From: an uncultured Klebsiella sp. | Lineage (GTDB): Bacteria > Myxococcota_A > UBA796 > SXON01 | Direction: 5' to 3' | Length of the DNA: 49,105 nt | NCBI GenBank assembly: GCA_964359125.1 | Contig: CAYHRZ010000001.1 | Location: forward strand, 1 to 49,105 | Shown: piece by piece, positions 14,213 through 22,998 of the stretch | How positions within the stretch are numbered: position 1 is the stretch's first letter | Layout of the letters: each line of letters starts with the position of its first letter | Program-made: the position numbers and the translations under genes | Notes under the pieces: generated by a model | Seen by the model: only the letters and a program-made list of their open reading frames with translations | What the model was told of the DNA's origin: nothing | Databases searched by the model: none

Positions 14213-15493
14213 TTACCCGCGGCGACGCCGGGCGGCGAGGAGCGCCGTCGCGGCGGCGATCATCCCCGGAGCGGCCGCGTTGTCGCAACCGCAGCCGGTG
14301 CCCGCGCTCTGCAAGCCGGGGTCGTCGCCCCCGGGCGAGTCGCCATCGAGGTCGCCGTCGTCGTCCCAGCCGTCCTCCTCGGTGGGCGTGTCGCGACCGT
14401 CGCAGAAGCTCTCCACGCAGGAGTAGTTCTGCTCGTAGTCGTCGGCGTAGGCGGTCACCATCGGCTCGTAGAGGCCCGAGCCGTAGAGCACGAGGTCCGT
14501 CTCGGCCTGCTCCGGCGTGTAGCGCATGTGCAGCCGCGTGAGGTGGTGGTTGTCGGCGTTGCCCCGGAAGCCCAGCGCCTCCACGTCTTCCTCGGTGATG
14601 TACACCCCCGAGCAGGGGTTGCAGTCGTAGAAGCCGCCGGCAAACTCCACCGTCCAGCCGGCGTCGCCCACCGCCGTCCACGCCTTCGTGTAGAGGTCGT
14701 CGTAGAACACCGAGAAGTCGTCGGCGTTGGGATCCCCCCAGATACACTTGTCGGGCACCTCGAACTCTGGGTAGTTCGAGATCGCCGCGCGGGCGGGGTC
14801 GTTGGCGCCTTCGAGCTCGGTGAAGGCGTAGATGATCATGTCTTGTTCGCCGGGCGAGTTCAGCGTGGCCAGGCGCAGGGGGATGGCGAAGAGCTCGCTG
14901 TCGTACGACACTTGCAGCGGCGAGAGCGGCACCCCGGTCGCGACCGCAGCCTCCTCCGCCACCTTGGCCGCGAGGAAGTAGCTCCCAGCCTCGATGTACT
15001 CGGCCAGGCGCTCGTCGGCGCCGGTGGGCAGGTAGTAGGCGTTGGCGTCGAGCCAGGCCCCGAGGCTCGACGACTCCTCGGCGGAGAGGATCACCACCTG
15101 GTACTCGCCCACGAGGTACTCGGCCTCCACCGTCACCCCGGTGTCGCCCGCGTCGGCGGTGTCGGACTGGGGGCCGCCGTCCTCGTAGGCCACGCCCGAG
15201 TCGGTGTTCGGGCAACCGGCGTCGTTCACATGCCGAGGGGCGCTGTACCCGTCCAAGCGGGCGAAGATCGACGGGTCCAGGGTCGTGACCTCGTCCTGGG
15301 CCAGCACCTCGGGCACCGGCATCACCAGCGCGAAGGCCTGGGGGTCGCCCACCGGGTTGATCGACACCGAGAACGTGGTGCGGTTGTCCTGGCGGACGAT
15401 GGCCACTTGCGCCGTGTCGAACGACAAGCTCGACGGCGTGCCGGTGGCGACGGTGGGACAGGGCAAGGCGAGCGAGACGGCGAGAAGGAGCAC
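14213..15493 (-). CDS. Secreted DUF2330-like protein with MYXO-CTERM-like sorting tail
   Basis: GTG 15493 is preceded by GGAGGG. It has a signal peptide, an acidic C-terminal linker, and the tail GTGCGCDNAAAPGMIAAATALLAARRRRG (Cys motif + TM + Arg cluster). Confidence 0.75.
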   Translation of the reverse strand: MLLLAVSLALPCPTVATGTPSSLSFDTAQVAIVRQDNRTTFSVSINPVGDPQAFALVMPVPEVLAQDEVTTLDPSIFARLDGYSAPRHVNDAGCPNTDSGVAYEDGGPQSDTADAGDTGVTVEAEYLVGEYQVVILSAEESSSLGAWLDANAYYLPTGADERLAEYIEAGSYFLAAKVAEEAAVATGVPLSPLQVSYDSELFAIPLRLATLNSPGEQDMIIYAFTELEGANDPARAAISNYPEFEVPDKCIWGDPNADDFSVFYDDLYTKAWTAVGDAGWTVEFAGGFYDCNPCSGVYITEEDVEALGFRGNADNHHLTRLHMRYTPEQAETDLVLYGSGLYEPMVTAYADDYEQNYSCVESFCDGRDTPTEEDGWDDDGDLDGDSPGGDDPGLQSAGTGCGCDNAAAPGMIAAATALLAARRRRG

Positions 15494-15612
15494 GAGGCCC
15501 TCCGGGGGACAGGCCCCTACTATGCCTCCGGCGAGCCCTGGTCGCCAGCCTCCCCCGCCCGGCCCGCGATCCGCTCCCCGAGCTTCACGGGTTGGCCGGG
15601 GGTGGTGGTTCG
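15487..15612. repeat. Direct repeat copy A (left boundary of the inserted cassette)
   Basis: 40 nt are identical to 18638-18677, followed by ~85 nt at ~80% identity to 18678-18763. Confidence 0.85.
15520..15606 (-). pseudogene. Displaced remnant of the psd 3' end (28 codons + stop)
   Basis: Translates to TTPGQPVKLGERIAGRAGEAGDQGSPEA*, compared with the genuine psd C-terminus ATPGQPVKLGERIAVRVGEAGGAPPEGA*. No upstream psd body is present. Confidence 0.7.
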
Positions 15613-15620
15613 TCTGGACG

Positions 15621-15863
15621 CTAGTCGGACGGACATTTCTCGAGGTCGTAGTACTCTTCGGTCAGGCAGTCGCAGGCCACGTTGACCGGTCGCCAGCGGC
15701 AAGCGCCGTCCACGTTCGAACACCCACAGTAGAACGTCGTTCCACAACCGTCGCAGCGGTAGTCGTACTCGCTGCTGGCGTCGCAGATCGCCAACGGCGC
15801 GAGCCGCCAGCAGGGTGCGTCGTCGCCGCAGGCCAAGAGCGAGGTGGCGACGGTCCAGACCAT
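15621..15863 (-). CDS. Small Cys-rich lipoprotein, paralog 1 (80 aa)
   Basis: MVWTVATSLLAC lipobox, then about 10 Cys in a pattern shared with the neighbouring paralog (Y-x-CDGCG-x-T...C-x-C...C-x-W...CDC-x-T-E/D-E). GC3 is lower than in neighbouring genes. Confidence 0.65.
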   Translation of the reverse strand: MVWTVATSLLACGDDAPCWRLAPLAICDASSEYDYRCDGCGTTFYCGCSNVDGACRWRPVNVACDCLTEEYYDLEKCPSD

Positions 15864-15938
15864 CAGGACAGCTCGCGGCCGACGCAGGCGTTGACTCTCA
15901 ACGTGAACCACCTCACGACCCGCAGTTCGGGCACGCAC

Positions 15939-16217
15939 TCAGTCGCCCTCCCCAAAGTCGTTACCGTCCCAGTAGCACTCGTCGCGAGACTCGTCTAGGC
16001 GGTGTTCATCTGTCACGCAGTCGCAGGTGATGTCGGACTTTAACCAATCGCACTCGATGCCTGGTCGGTGACAAGAACACAGCGACGTGCGCCCGCAGCC
16101 GTCGCACTGGTAGGTCTCGTGATTACTGTAGTCGCAGTCGAAGCTCGGCAAGATCGGCTCGCACTCCGCGTCGCCGTCGCAGGCCAGCAACGAAACGCAG
16201 AGCAGACAGACCGTCAC
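15939..16217 (-). CDS. Small Cys-rich lipoprotein, paralog 2 (92 aa)
   Basis: The GTG start overlaps the upstream stop (GTGA). VTVCLLCVSLLAC lipobox. The Cys pattern is conserved with paralog 1. Confidence 0.65.
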   Translation of the reverse strand: MTVCLLCVSLLACDGDAECEPILPSFDCDYSNHETYQCDGCGRTSLCSCHRPGIECDWLKSDITCDCVTDEHRLDESRDECYWDGNDFGEGD

Positions 16218-18130
16218 GCATCCTCTCCACAGCCCAGCGCCTCGGCGGTGTCCGGGCTCCAGCACGGCAACGCCGCGACCGTGGCCACCTGGCCGGGTGT
16301 CCCGTCCACCACTGTGTCGCAGTAGAGTGCGTGGTAGCGCAGCGTGCCGCTGTCGGTACTGCAACTCGCACAGTTGTCCAGGAACGCCGCGTCGGGGTTG
16401 TCGAAGTCGCCGCTACCTCGGCGCTCGTACGTGTACAGCGGAATGCCGAGATGCGCCCGGACGCGACACTTCCAAGCGTTCGACGCTGACTCGAAACAAC
16501 AGTGGTGGCCATGGGGGCAGTGGCCCCCTCCCAGGTACACGTGGCCGATCTCGTGGATCAGGGTCTCGCCATGGTCGGCCAGCATACACAGGACATACCG
16601 CGACAAGCGCTGCGCCGTGAGCAAGTACTCGGCGGCCCCGGCGAGGTCGCCCTCGTCGCCCAGGGCGTAGGCGTAGTCGAGCGCCAGCCGCGCCAGGTGC
16701 ATGATGCGATCCGCCACCAGGCCATGGTAGGCAAGCTGGTTGGGCGGGAACACCACGTTCCAGCTCCCGCCGAACGCGATCCCACCACACCCTGACTTGG
16801 GCGGCTGACAATCCTCGCCCGACTCCCGGCCGGTGTAGCAACCCTCGCTGCCCACCCAGCGCAGGTCCCAGTCGTCCCAGGTCTTCCCGTCGCACACTCC
16901 CGGGTTGTACCCCTCGTGGCACGTGTCAGCTAGCTTCCACGAGTGGCAGGGCTCGTTCACGGGGCCGTAGCCGCGCTGCGCGCTGGAGTAGTGGATGGCG
17001 AGGGAGCAAGACTCCCGGCGGCCATCGCCGAAGTACGCCTCGTGCCGCTCGGCACTCTTGCCCTCCAGCATCGCCTCGAGGAACTCCGGGAACTTCCGGC
17101 ACTGCGCGAAGGCGTCGTTGGTGTAGGGGTTCACGTCCTTGGTGTTGGCGTACTGCACGTAGGTGAGCACGAGCTGGCAGGCGTAGACGTGGAACCGGAA
17201 GGGCGCGCCCCAGCCGTCGTTCCAGAACTGGTAGGCGTGCTCCCACTCCCAGTCGTCGCGGTGCAGGTTGTAGCAGCCGAGCAGCTTGCGGAACACGTCG
17301 GGGTCGCCGCGGGACTCGGAGCGAAACGCGGCCCAGAGCACGTCGAGGGTCTGGTGGACCGAGTGGACCTTGCCGTGGGCCGCGTCGCGGCCCTGCCGGT
17401 ACACGTGCGTCCAGTCGAGCAGCCACGCCTCGTACCAGTCGAAGGGGATGGTGAAGGACTGGTCCCGGTAGCTGAACGATGCCACCTCCTCCCGGGCCGT
17501 GAGGCCAGAGGGCGGTGGCGCCCCGGAGAGCGGCGCCGGCGCCGGTGCCTGCCCCCTTGGCCCAGGCGCACCGCCGGGCGGACCAGCCTTCCGCGGGACG
17601 ACGAGCCCGACCACGTCGGCGAACGACGCCGCGGCCCGCGATCGAGAGGCCCGCGGGGCGAGCAACTGGGAACAGCCCCGGCCGCCAGCCTTCGGCAGTA
17701 GCCGCTCCCCCCTCGGCGACGTGGTCGCTGGCGGGCGGAGCAGCGACGCCGCCCGGGCCAGCACCTGCTCGGTGTGCGACGCGGCGAACGGGGTCGCGTT
17801 GCCCGAGGCGTCGATGCCGACGACGAGCCCCGGGAGCAGCCGCGACCGGGGCGAGGGACGGGCTCGCGGCGGGGGCAGCACCCCGGCCGGGTCGATCACG
17901 CCGTCCCCCGTCCACCCCACGCCGCAGTCAGGAGCCCGGGGAGGCGCCAGCTTGCGCGTGCGACGGGCGCGCCCGCGCGTCCCGGGTGGTCGCCCGAGGT
18001 TCACCGGCACGATGCCGGCTTCCCGGGGGTCCGTGGCTGGCAGCCCGGCTGCGCCGCCCGGCGCCACAGCGCCCTGGCCGCAGCCGCAACTACCCCCGCA
18101 GCCGCCCCCGCAGCCGCACCCCGCGCTCAC
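16214..18130 (-). CDS. Large Cys-rich protein with HExxH zinc-metalloprotease-like motif (638 aa), family not recognised
   Basis: GTG 18130 overlaps the stop of the 120-aa gene (GTGA). N-terminus is VSAGCGCGGGCGGSCGCGQG, followed by a ~250-aa Pro/Arg/Gly-rich region. The ~390-aa globular C-terminal part has more than 25 Cys and TLIHEIGHVYLGGGHCPHGHHCC. GC3 is consistently high in this frame. Confidence 0.7.
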   Translation of the reverse strand: MSAGCGCGGGCGGSCGCGQGAVAPGGAAGLPATDPREAGIVPVNLGRPPGTRGRARRTRKLAPPRAPDCGVGWTGDGVIDPAGVLPPPRARPSPRSRLLPGLVVGIDASGNATPFAASHTEQVLARAASLLRPPATTSPRGERLLPKAGGRGCSQLLAPRASRSRAAASFADVVGLVVPRKAGPPGGAPGPRGQAPAPAPLSGAPPPSGLTAREEVASFSYRDQSFTIPFDWYEAWLLDWTHVYRQGRDAAHGKVHSVHQTLDVLWAAFRSESRGDPDVFRKLLGCYNLHRDDWEWEHAYQFWNDGWGAPFRFHVYACQLVLTYVQYANTKDVNPYTNDAFAQCRKFPEFLEAMLEGKSAERHEAYFGDGRRESCSLAIHYSSAQRGYGPVNEPCHSWKLADTCHEGYNPGVCDGKTWDDWDLRWVGSEGCYTGRESGEDCQPPKSGCGGIAFGGSWNVVFPPNQLAYHGLVADRIMHLARLALDYAYALGDEGDLAGAAEYLLTAQRLSRYVLCMLADHGETLIHEIGHVYLGGGHCPHGHHCCFESASNAWKCRVRAHLGIPLYTYERRGSGDFDNPDAAFLDNCASCSTDSGTLRYHALYCDTVVDGTPGQVATVAALPCWSPDTAEALGCGEDA

Positions 18131-18489
18131 TCCTTCCACACCGAGTCGGCCAGCACGACCGGGCTCCCGGTGACCGTGCCGACCGCGACCAGGCGGATGA
18201 AGCGGAGGAAGTTCTCGCACCACATGTGCTTGTTGCCCGCCGCGCTGTTGTCGAGCACCACCTGGAGGTCCGCGCCGCTGGGGTCCTTCGCGTCGATGAA
18301 CGCGTCGTCCTCGTTCACCGCGGCGTGCTGCACGCGCAGGTAGGTGGCGGCCGACGTCCCGTCCTTGAGGCGGCGGAACTGCAACTCCCCTCTCGTGAAG
18401 GCGCCGGCGTCGAGCACGTCTTCCTTCGGGGTCTTGTAGCCGGTGGTGATGACGGTGGGTTCCAGGACTCGATGGTACAACGACGACAT
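18127..18489 (-). CDS. Hypothetical 120-aa soluble protein, first gene of the cassette
   Basis: ATG 18489 is preceded by GGAG. The sequence is non-repetitive (MSSLYHRVLEPTVITTGYKTPKEDVLDAG...HMWCENFLRFIRLVAVGTVTGSPVVLADSVWKE) with no signal peptide. I recognise no family. Confidence 0.65.
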   Translation of the reverse strand: MSSLYHRVLEPTVITTGYKTPKEDVLDAGAFTRGELQFRRLKDGTSAATYLRVQHAAVNEDDAFIDAKDPSGADLQVVLDNSAAGNKHMWCENFLRFIRLVAVGTVTGSPVVLADSVWKE

Positions 18490-18637: not shown

Positions 18638-18763
18638 GGAGCACGAGGCCCTCCGGGGGACAGGCCCCTACTATGCCCCCTCGGGAGGCGCCCCGCCAGC
18701 CTCCCCAACCCGCACCGCGATCCGCTCCCCGAGCTTCACCGGCTGGCCCGGGGTAGCCGTCCA
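18638..18763. repeat. Direct repeat copy B (right boundary of the cassette; overlaps the genuine psd 3' end)
   Basis: See copy A. It contains the psd stop (18671-18673), the 33-nt spacer, and the RBS+GTGCTC that in copy A starts the DUF2330-like gene. Confidence 0.85.

Positions 18764-20592: not shown

Positions 20593-22998
<2,406 letters not shown>

Follow-up and report, generated by a model that had tools for sequence, protein, structure and literature searches.

Tandem Small Cys-Rich Lipoprotein Genes Coupled to a HExxH Gene in an Uncultured Myxococcota_A Bacterium: Candidate Immunity Genes of a Mobile Module

KNOWN SYSTEMS AND THE LOCUS

Two adjacent genes for small Cys-rich lipoproteins, referred to here as paralogs 2 and 1 of the SC (small Cys-rich) family, lie directly downstream of a gene for a HExxH protein in a window of 49,105 nucleotides, the whole stretch of DNA that was analyzed. 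The window is a complete 49-kb contig (CAYHRZ010000001.1) from a metagenome-assembled genome (MAG) of an uncultured member of the Myxococcota_A (G000; 5.8 Mb, 71% GC, 85% complete). In the serralysin/Inh systems (AprI, MEROPS I38), the gene of a zinc endopeptidase and that of a small exported inhibitor share one operon. Inh is a soluble eight-stranded β-barrel of ∼10 kDa and not a Cys-rich lipoprotein, and serralysins contain RTX repeats and have a type I secretion system (T1SS) encoded nearby. Orphan genes and arrays are, to our knowledge, not a feature of Inh. The carboxypeptidase inhibitors of leeches and ticks and the N-domains of TIMPs are small proteins with 4 to 5 disulfides and a short β-sheet scaffold, as the SC proteins are predicted to be; these inhibitors are eukaryotic, are not lipoproteins, and place a free N or C terminus in the active site. 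By analogy, the closest experimentally tested case is Tpe-Tpi. The HExxH effector VgrG2b-Cter/Tpe1 acts in the periplasm and is neutralized by the DsbA-dependent periplasmic immunity protein PA0261, which is encoded adjacent to it and whose homologs in Enterobacteriaceae are outer membrane lipoproteins (PMC6899460). Polyimmunity arrays have been described for polymorphic toxin systems (PMC3482391).

Comparison of the locus with its relatives leads us to regard the two SC proteins, with moderate confidence, as periplasmic lipoproteins that confer immunity to, or inhibit, a cognate metallopeptidase-like HExxH effector. This reading is based on the tight coupling of the genes, their near-obligate adjacency, the unrelated lipoproteins that replace them elsewhere, the tandem divergence of the copies, arrays next to toxin remnants, orphan genes under selection, the mobility of the module, and its multicopy state. 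It presumes export, lipidation, disulfide formation, peptidase activity, toxicity, physical binding, and delivery between cells, all of which are predicted from comparative genomics. The initial annotation of the locus had proposed either inhibitors or immunity proteins or, alternatively, effectors processed by the protease; the comparative evidence favors the first of these roles and disfavors the second.

THE TANDEM SC GENES AND THEIR PRODUCTS

15939 to 16217, minus strand: paralog 2 (SC family), 92 amino acids (aa), GTG start at 16217 (translation, frame plot of the GC content at third codon positions, family hidden Markov model, alignment)
15621 to 15863, minus strand: paralog 1 (SC family), 80 aa, ATG start at 15863 (translation, family hidden Markov model)

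The two open reading frames (ORFs) are present in tandem on the minus strand between 15621 and 16217, as first annotated, and their claimed paralogy is borne out by BLASTP, which aligns the products gap free over 70 residues with 41% identity and an E value of 1e-16. The GC content at third codon positions in the proposed frame, taken from a codon-position GC plot, is 0.75 to 0.93 in both ORFs, which therefore look coding. The lipobox LLAC is located at 16190 to 16179 in paralog 2 and at 15839 to 15828 in paralog 1. Each mature paralog contains the lipobox Cys and 10 more Cys residues, arranged in the array that the initial annotation had described, apart from the spacing between C-x-C and the next Cys, which is 6 residues and not 4 to 5. 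The GTG of paralog 2 overlaps the stop codon of the HExxH gene as GTGA (16217 to 16214), with the Shine-Dalgarno sequence GGAGAGG in front, in agreement with the translational coupling already noted for these two genes. For paralog 1, the start codon may be ATG 15863 or, instead, GTG 15938, which follows immediately after the TGA of paralog 2 (15939/15938) and has the Shine-Dalgarno sequence GGGGAGGG in front. The start at GTG 15938 results in a protein of 105 aa with a charged RLRRPR n-region and is preceded by the better Shine-Dalgarno sequence; the family hidden Markov model match on paralog 1 spans residues 25 to 104 of this 105-aa frame. A scan for promoters and terminators gives no match.

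Among 1.84 billion representative proteins, a full HMMER scan yields only 6 genuine SC relatives. Two further entries of that listing, the repeat proteins P0007 and P0011, were dropped as spurious. In a word-indexed search of 5.8 billion proteins, paralog 2 finds itself as the sole match. Genome searches place SC genes in 19 of 154 species of one order, and as many as 11 copies occur in a single genome. Neither paralog matches Pfam, NCBIfam, PHROG, or PADLOC, and the earlier statement that the proteins belong to no recognizable family stands after profile searches and a search with the predicted fold, none of which returned a named family.

An alignment of 19 to 20 SC members shows 8 Cys residues and 1 Trp as invariant. 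The lipobox Cys is conserved in 20 of 20 aligned members, with Ala, Ser, or Gly at position −1 and a hydrophobic stretch before it. The SC proteins are thus predicted to be exported and anchored by a lipid, and the lipobox together with the even Cys count points to a periplasmic location. The mature domain would comprise ∼65 to 80 aa with 4 conserved disulfides and 1 extra disulfide in G000, in whose paralogs the two additional Cys residues flank the loop of a predicted β-hairpin. AlphaFold2, supplied with the family alignment, models the SC protein as a small three-stranded sheet with a mean pLDDT of 81.7 and a core above 89. The ratio of nonsynonymous to synonymous substitution rates (dN/dS) between SC copies is 0.19 to 0.38, orphans included. 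This ratio and the conservation of the family show the SC genes to be genuine and under purifying selection; a lack of conservation, named at the outset as an observation that would speak against these ORFs, is not found.

LINKAGE OF SC GENES TO HEXXH GENES

16214 to 18130, minus strand: HExxH gene, 638 aa, GTG start at 18130 (frame plot, start site, alignment of five orthologs)
18127 to 18489, minus strand: g120, 120 aa, stop codon overlapping the HExxH start as GTGA (frame plot)

The initial annotation had asked whether homologs neighbor HExxH proteins, and for most of them this is the case. Of the 61 SC genes in the 154 genomes of the order, 47 are found on the same strand as a HExxH match and at most 5 kb downstream of it, with 39 within 1.3 kb. 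The linked copies span seven families of the order, with HExxH identity down to ∼30%. The order g120-HExxH-SC is kept in G008, G015, G019, and G034, in which the HExxH proteins are 32 to 52% identical.

The remaining 14 SC genes are unlinked. In G011, both SC genes occupy a locus that is syntenic with the full G008 cassette, with flanks of 81 to 86% identity, and from which g120 and the HExxH gene are missing. On G015:C561, two SC genes lie behind a truncated g120, and G127:C75 carries a g120 fragment together with an SC gene broken by a TAG stop. On G013:C205, an SC gene has neither g120 nor a HExxH gene nearby, and G067 contains lone SC copies. Beyond these cases, the unlinked genes abut contig ends or have a context that is uncharacterized. 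The lipobox is intact in the orphan SC genes, and so is the Cys pattern in nearly all of them. An orphan on G015:C561 (L080, 1140 to 1382) is without the fifth conserved Cys (GVWYRSAY versus GVWQCVVF), possibly a sign of early decay. Homologs without linkage to a protease, the finding that was initially expected to contradict the pairing, do exist in a few genomes; the pattern in these genomes is that of orphan immunity and not of independence.

SC genes also form arrays of 2 to 7 copies. In G021 (L013, G021:C73, 5990 to 7409), four tandem SC genes come after a 114-aa C-terminal HExxH remnant and alternate as a-b-a-b, with identities of 92% between a and c and 78% between b and d. The arrays next to HExxH remnants further include one of four copies on G139:C153 and one of seven on G128:C9.

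The existence of SC copies without a HExxH gene and the mobility of the cassette would also be compatible with lipoproteins that are unrelated passengers, hitchhiking on the cassette and serving the envelope independently of the HExxH protein. This explanation is very unlikely in view of the 47 copies, drawn from seven families and extending down to ∼30% HExxH identity, that directly follow a HExxH match in the same orientation, and of the start/stop overlap with the HExxH gene. Nearly all unlinked copies, moreover, are accompanied by remains of a decayed module or located at contig ends.

UNRELATED LIPOPROTEINS IN THE SAME SLOT

The slot downstream of the HExxH gene holds a lipoprotein throughout, and different HExxH clades have lipoproteins of unrelated families in it. 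On two Logan contigs (L050:3091-4419 and L051:3134-4453), g120 and a HExxH gene with an N-terminal CGC motif are followed by a translationally coupled gene for a leucine-rich repeat (LRR)-like lipoprotein of ∼440 aa (442 aa). Within G000 itself, the module on contig C21 continues with a Cys-rich lipoprotein of ∼220 aa containing two LCDCxGDG repeats, and the module on contig C275 continues with a different, helical lipoprotein with 11 Cys residues, encoded by a tandem pair of genes whose products are 81% identical. FG-GAP proteins take the slot at two loci (L028 and L032). When the classes of partner are mapped on a tree built from 25 HExxH domains, 7 changes are required, compared to a mean of 11.6 after shuffling, and 0 of 200 shuffles reach a value as low; this clustering is supportive and not conclusive, since kin share labels. 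SC is the commonest partner state on the tree and is paraphyletic, with the LRR partner nested inside an SC-linked clade.

The exchange of partners bears on the question of whether the lipoproteins are substrate, cargo, or anchor, that is, whether the HExxH enzyme processes them or is tethered or escorted by them on the surface of the cell. Cotranscription and the fixed gene order agree with such a role, and VgrG2b-Cter, which may act on lipoprotein linkers (PMC6899460), provides a precedent for a HExxH protein acting on lipoproteins. Slot partners as unrelated as a knot of ∼65 aa and an LRR protein of 442 aa would, however, be odd for the substrate of one conserved enzyme. The linker from the lipid Cys to the first structural Cys is 5 residues long in the SC alignment and shows no conserved cleavage motif, and orphans persist without the enzyme. 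A substrate or anchor role is therefore quite unlikely.

A MOBILE FOUR-GENE CASSETTE

15487 to 15603, no strand assigned: direct repeat copy A, a duplicate of the psd 3′ end and spacer; downstream cassette border
18638 to 18754, no strand assigned: direct repeat copy B, the genuine psd 3′ end and spacer; upstream cassette border

The genes of the cassette follow each other in the order g120, HExxH, paralog 2, and paralog 1 and are tightly coupled (GTGA, GTGA, and TGA-GTG). Together, they form a 3.15-kb insertion between psd, assigned by Pfam, and a DUF2330 gene. According to a repeat search, the direct repeats of ∼117 bp consist of a block of 43 nucleotides (nt) at 98% and one of 61 nt at 89%, with a spacing of 3151 nt. 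The three closest congeners (G011, G008, and G009) have an empty site in which psd is followed directly by DUF2330. G008 carries its cassette at a different locus, with an AMP-ligase gene on one side and a xanthine-dehydrogenase-like operon on the other. These observations mark the cassette as accessory and mobile, and its genes include no integrase. G000 carries at least 4 g120 genes and at least 3 HExxH modules, and the number of modules per genome is 3 to 7.

Elsewhere in the window (20593 to 22998, plus strand), an ORF encodes an 801-aa protein with FG-GAP and Cys-rich repeats and a lipobox-like start, MLLLLAC.

THE HEXXH PROTEIN

The HExxH ORF upstream of the SC genes had been annotated with 782 aa. 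The frame plot corrects this by splitting the ORF into g120 (18489 to 18127) and a HExxH gene of 638 aa, whose GTG start at 18130 lies in a GTGA overlap (18130 to 18127) and is preceded by the Shine-Dalgarno sequence GGAAGGAG. All five orthologs compared (32 to 52% identity) have a GTG start behind a Shine-Dalgarno sequence and the same CGC-type N-terminal motif. The protein begins with the Cys/Gly motif MSAGCGCGGGCGGSCGCG (18130 to 18071), followed by ∼230 aa of disorder rich in Pro, Arg, and Gly and by a domain of ∼400 aa. This domain shows 16 invariant Cys residues and the motif HEIGHVYLGGGHC (16555 to 16517), from which the label of a putative metallopeptidase is derived. The N-terminal Cys/Gly motif may be a trafficking or metal-binding tag. 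In the form M-x-x-CGC-x-GG-C, it opens every HExxH paralog (L011, L014, L015, L016, L050, and the G000 contigs C21 and C275), and it is also present on a C682 protein without HExxH, which is encoded behind a related jellyroll gene.

Pfam, NCBIfam, PHROG, and PADLOC give no match to the HExxH protein. Among 5.8 billion proteins, the word-indexed search finds 6 relatives of the HExxH domain, none of them named; a comparison of the HExxH alignment with metagenome contigs gives no relative, and a scan of genome contigs returns just the four loci already known. The protein has no signal peptide and no Sec, Tat, or RTX signal.

These features are relevant to a transit inhibitor that acts on the producer side, as in serralysin/Inh (AprA/AprI), in which the HExxH protein would be a secreted digestive or predatory protease and the lipoproteins would only guard the cell's own periplasm against enzyme that becomes active too early or leaks back in, with no role between cells. 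Gene order and coupling would be equally expected in this case. The periplasmic location suggested by the lipobox and the even Cys count is in accordance with it, and secreted proteases would be expected in a high-GC lineage with large genomes. The missing Sec, Tat, or RTX signal of the HExxH protein and the absence of an exporter from the cassette argue against it, as does the lack of Pfam matches to Inh (I38) or serralysin. Orphan SC genes under purifying selection and arrays next to HExxH remnants would, moreover, be purposeless in pure self-protection. A transit inhibitor is thus unlikely, and the serralysin/Inh analogy drawn in the initial annotation fails on membership, with no Inh, serralysin, or RTX match in Pfam and no signal peptide on the HExxH protein.

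The SC genes could further be considered as precursors resembling those of peptides that are made ribosomally and modified posttranslationally (RiPPs), with Cys-rich peptides that the HExxH protein would modify in the cytoplasm and that would then be exported and lipidated. Tandem, diverging, precursor-like small genes beside a conserved enzyme without a signal peptide are in line with this possibility. RiPP precursors that bear a lipobox have recently been described (PMC13056109), and the reference list of that paper includes a HExxH RiPP enzyme. It is nevertheless extremely unlikely here. The cassette contains no MNIO, radical-SAM, RRE, or other RiPP enzyme, none of its four genes has a Pfam or NCBIfam match, and its flanks are psd and DUF2330. 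The mature SC protein is predicted confidently as a folded disulfide-rich domain, the partners in sister clades are folded lipoproteins of 220 to 440 aa, and the HExxH protein itself has 16 invariant Cys residues and a disordered region of 230 aa.

THE JELLYROLL GENE G120

The g120 product is of the cytoplasmic type, without a signal peptide and with 1 Cys (0 to 3 in homologs). AlphaFold2 predicts an eight-stranded jellyroll with a pLDDT of 92. Its neighbors in the PDB are weak (Foldseek; E values of ∼3e-3, TM scores of 0.4 to 0.6) and comprise Ena spore-appendage subunits, phage cement proteins, and YomS. In BFVD, the model resembles many uncharacterized tailed-phage proteins of 110 to 140 aa, with TM scores of 0.6 to 0.7 and E values from 3e-5. 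No match is found in Pfam, NCBIfam, PHROG, or PADLOC, a profile search of the PDB gives no significant match, and a comparison with viral contigs finds none. The word-indexed search of 5.8 billion proteins returns 3 relatives, none of which is named.

Of 401 genomes sampled throughout the phylum, 18 contain the gene; 14 of these 18 belong to one order, and the others are sporadic. This distribution suggests that the putative effector-immunity system is largely confined to that order. A g120 gene of 110 to 120 aa is located upstream of nearly every HExxH paralog, with at least 4 copies per genome; the further copies in G000 are at C21:17631-18044, C275:4177-4599, and C418:4645-4995. A second, distantly related jellyroll family has 3 copies in G000 (C441:1543-2007, C110:11483-11944, and C682:2283-2726), which the g120 profile matches with E values of 5e-7 to 6e-4. 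The copy on C110 has the gene of a different small Cys-rich lipoprotein ∼1.5 kb downstream. In genus g14, a divergent second g120-like gene lies downstream of the SC genes (L014:3548-3892 and L021:732-1076), followed in L021 by an ORF resembling a sigma-54-type activator.

PROPOSED MECHANISM AND POINTS AGAINST IT

According to the immunity reading, the HExxH protein would be produced without a signal peptide and would probably be inactive in the cytoplasm of the producer, since it has no such signal and the cytoplasm is reducing. It would reach the periplasm or envelope of neighboring cells, siblings included, by a route that probably involves the co-conserved g120 jellyroll, the N-terminal CGC motif, and the disordered linker. 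The SC lipoprotein in the periplasm would then bind and block the HExxH domain. Duplication and divergence of SC genes would widen the protection and lead to a polyimmunity locus, and lineages that lose the effector would retain the lipoproteins to resist their neighbors.

DsbA homologs are present in 5 of 5 cassette genomes. TssC/VipB (PF05943) gives no match in G000, G008, G015, G019, and G034, which are 85 to 95% complete. Delivery by a type VI secretion system (T6SS) was ruled out by the absence of TssC from these five cassette genomes. A phage-sheath-like gene pair (∼600 and ∼400 aa, PF04984) is found in 143 of the order's 154 genomes, a distribution suggestive of a conserved contractile injection system in this lineage. 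Since the sheath genes are this widespread, their co-occurrence with the cassette says nothing on delivery by an extracellular contractile injection system (eCIS).

Several points weigh against the immunity reading. The SC model has no neighbor in the PDB (Foldseek; best E value of 3.5, TM score below 0.3), and an inhibitor mechanism therefore cannot be borrowed from any solved structure. Calculated from the nearest start, the signal peptides of paralogs 2 and 1 are uncharged and unusually short, with 12 and 11 residues before the Cys; a lipoprotein signal has a positively charged n-region and a length of about 15 to 25 residues. In a G011 orphan, even the longest possible ORF gives the N terminus MALLLAVLVPAC. 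The HExxH protein shows no significant match to a peptidase family. The best PDB profiles are ADAM33 (E value of 0.14) and archaemetzincin (E values of 0.17 to 0.65), in the motif region only, and 2 of 12 HExxH members match Pfam Peptidase_M54 with a best E value of 0.023, below the cutoff. The motif HEIGHVYLGGGHC corresponds to HExxH-x3-G-x2-H, with one residue more than the metzincin motif HExxHxxGxxH, and the spacing of the third His varies among HExxH paralogs, at +8 or with longer insertions before an invariant HC. Because of the extra residue and this variation, the fixed spacing of the metzincin type is not seen in these proteins. Shared ancestry could partly lie behind the clustering of partners by HExxH clade, and the searches for TssC and for sheath genes point to no delivery machine for the HExxH protein.

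If the immunity reading is correct, the SC proteins would be small disulfide-rich lipoprotein inhibitors of a new family whose fold is probably new as well, and the HExxH proteins would represent a new effector family. The jellyroll and the CGC N terminus would form a conserved two-part trafficking signature to which no known secretion route has been matched. The lineage is known from MAGs only, and the module is compact (3 kb), mobile, and multicopy. It bears hallmarks of interbacterial conflict and could therefore underlie competition or predation among these uncultured bacteria. As stable scaffolds against metallopeptidases, the small inhibitors could also have practical value. A wider interpretation, which we consider doubtful, combines g120, the effector with the CGC motif, and the lipoprotein into an undescribed, self-contained, mobile effector-immunity system with a new route independent of T6SS, Sec, Tat, and T1SS. 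A jellyroll resembling phage decoration proteins and a Cys/Gly tag of ∼20 residues would here traffic alternative Cys-rich toxin domains, and the SC protein would be a new metalloprotease-inhibitor fold.

COMPARISON WITH KNOWN SYSTEMS

In contrast to the β-barrel of Inh, the SC model is a three-stranded sheet, and no Pfam match to Inh, serralysin, or RTX is found at E values up to 1 to 10. Compared to the inhibitors of the leech, tick, and TIMP type, with their free terminus in the active site, the N terminus of the SC proteins would be acylated, and the model has no neighbor in the PDB. The signature HExxHxxQ...E of the eCIS-associated PVC-metallopeptidases (DUF4157; PMC3482391) is not found in the HExxH protein, which reads HEIGHVYLG without the Gln and has no Pfam match.

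With polyimmunity loci (PMC3482391), the SC genes share tandem diverged immunity paralogs next to a toxin gene or its remnant, retention without the toxin, and mobile, variable, multicopy loci. Classical polymorphic toxins contain large N-terminal trafficking regions (such as RHS, filamentous hemagglutinin, PAAR, or LXG) and usually have cytoplasmic immunity proteins, whereas a CGC motif of ∼20 residues and a disordered region are found here and the presumed immunity proteins are lipoproteins.

The module differs from Tpe-Tpi in the absence of TssC from five genomes and of a VgrG fusion and in the presence of the CGC motif, the disordered linker, and the upstream jellyroll gene. The HExxH domain and the SC proteins match no described family, and VgrG2b/PA0261 are likened to them by description. 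The immunity proteins of Tpe-Tpi show conserved Cys residues, a need for DsbA, and neutralization by complex formation (PMC6899460). Common to Tpe-Tpi, in both the VgrG2b/PA0261 pair of Pseudomonas aeruginosa and the Tpe1-Tpi1 pair of Acinetobacter baylyi, and the module described here is a HExxH effector with an envelope-targeted immunity gene directly downstream, both of them putative in the present case.

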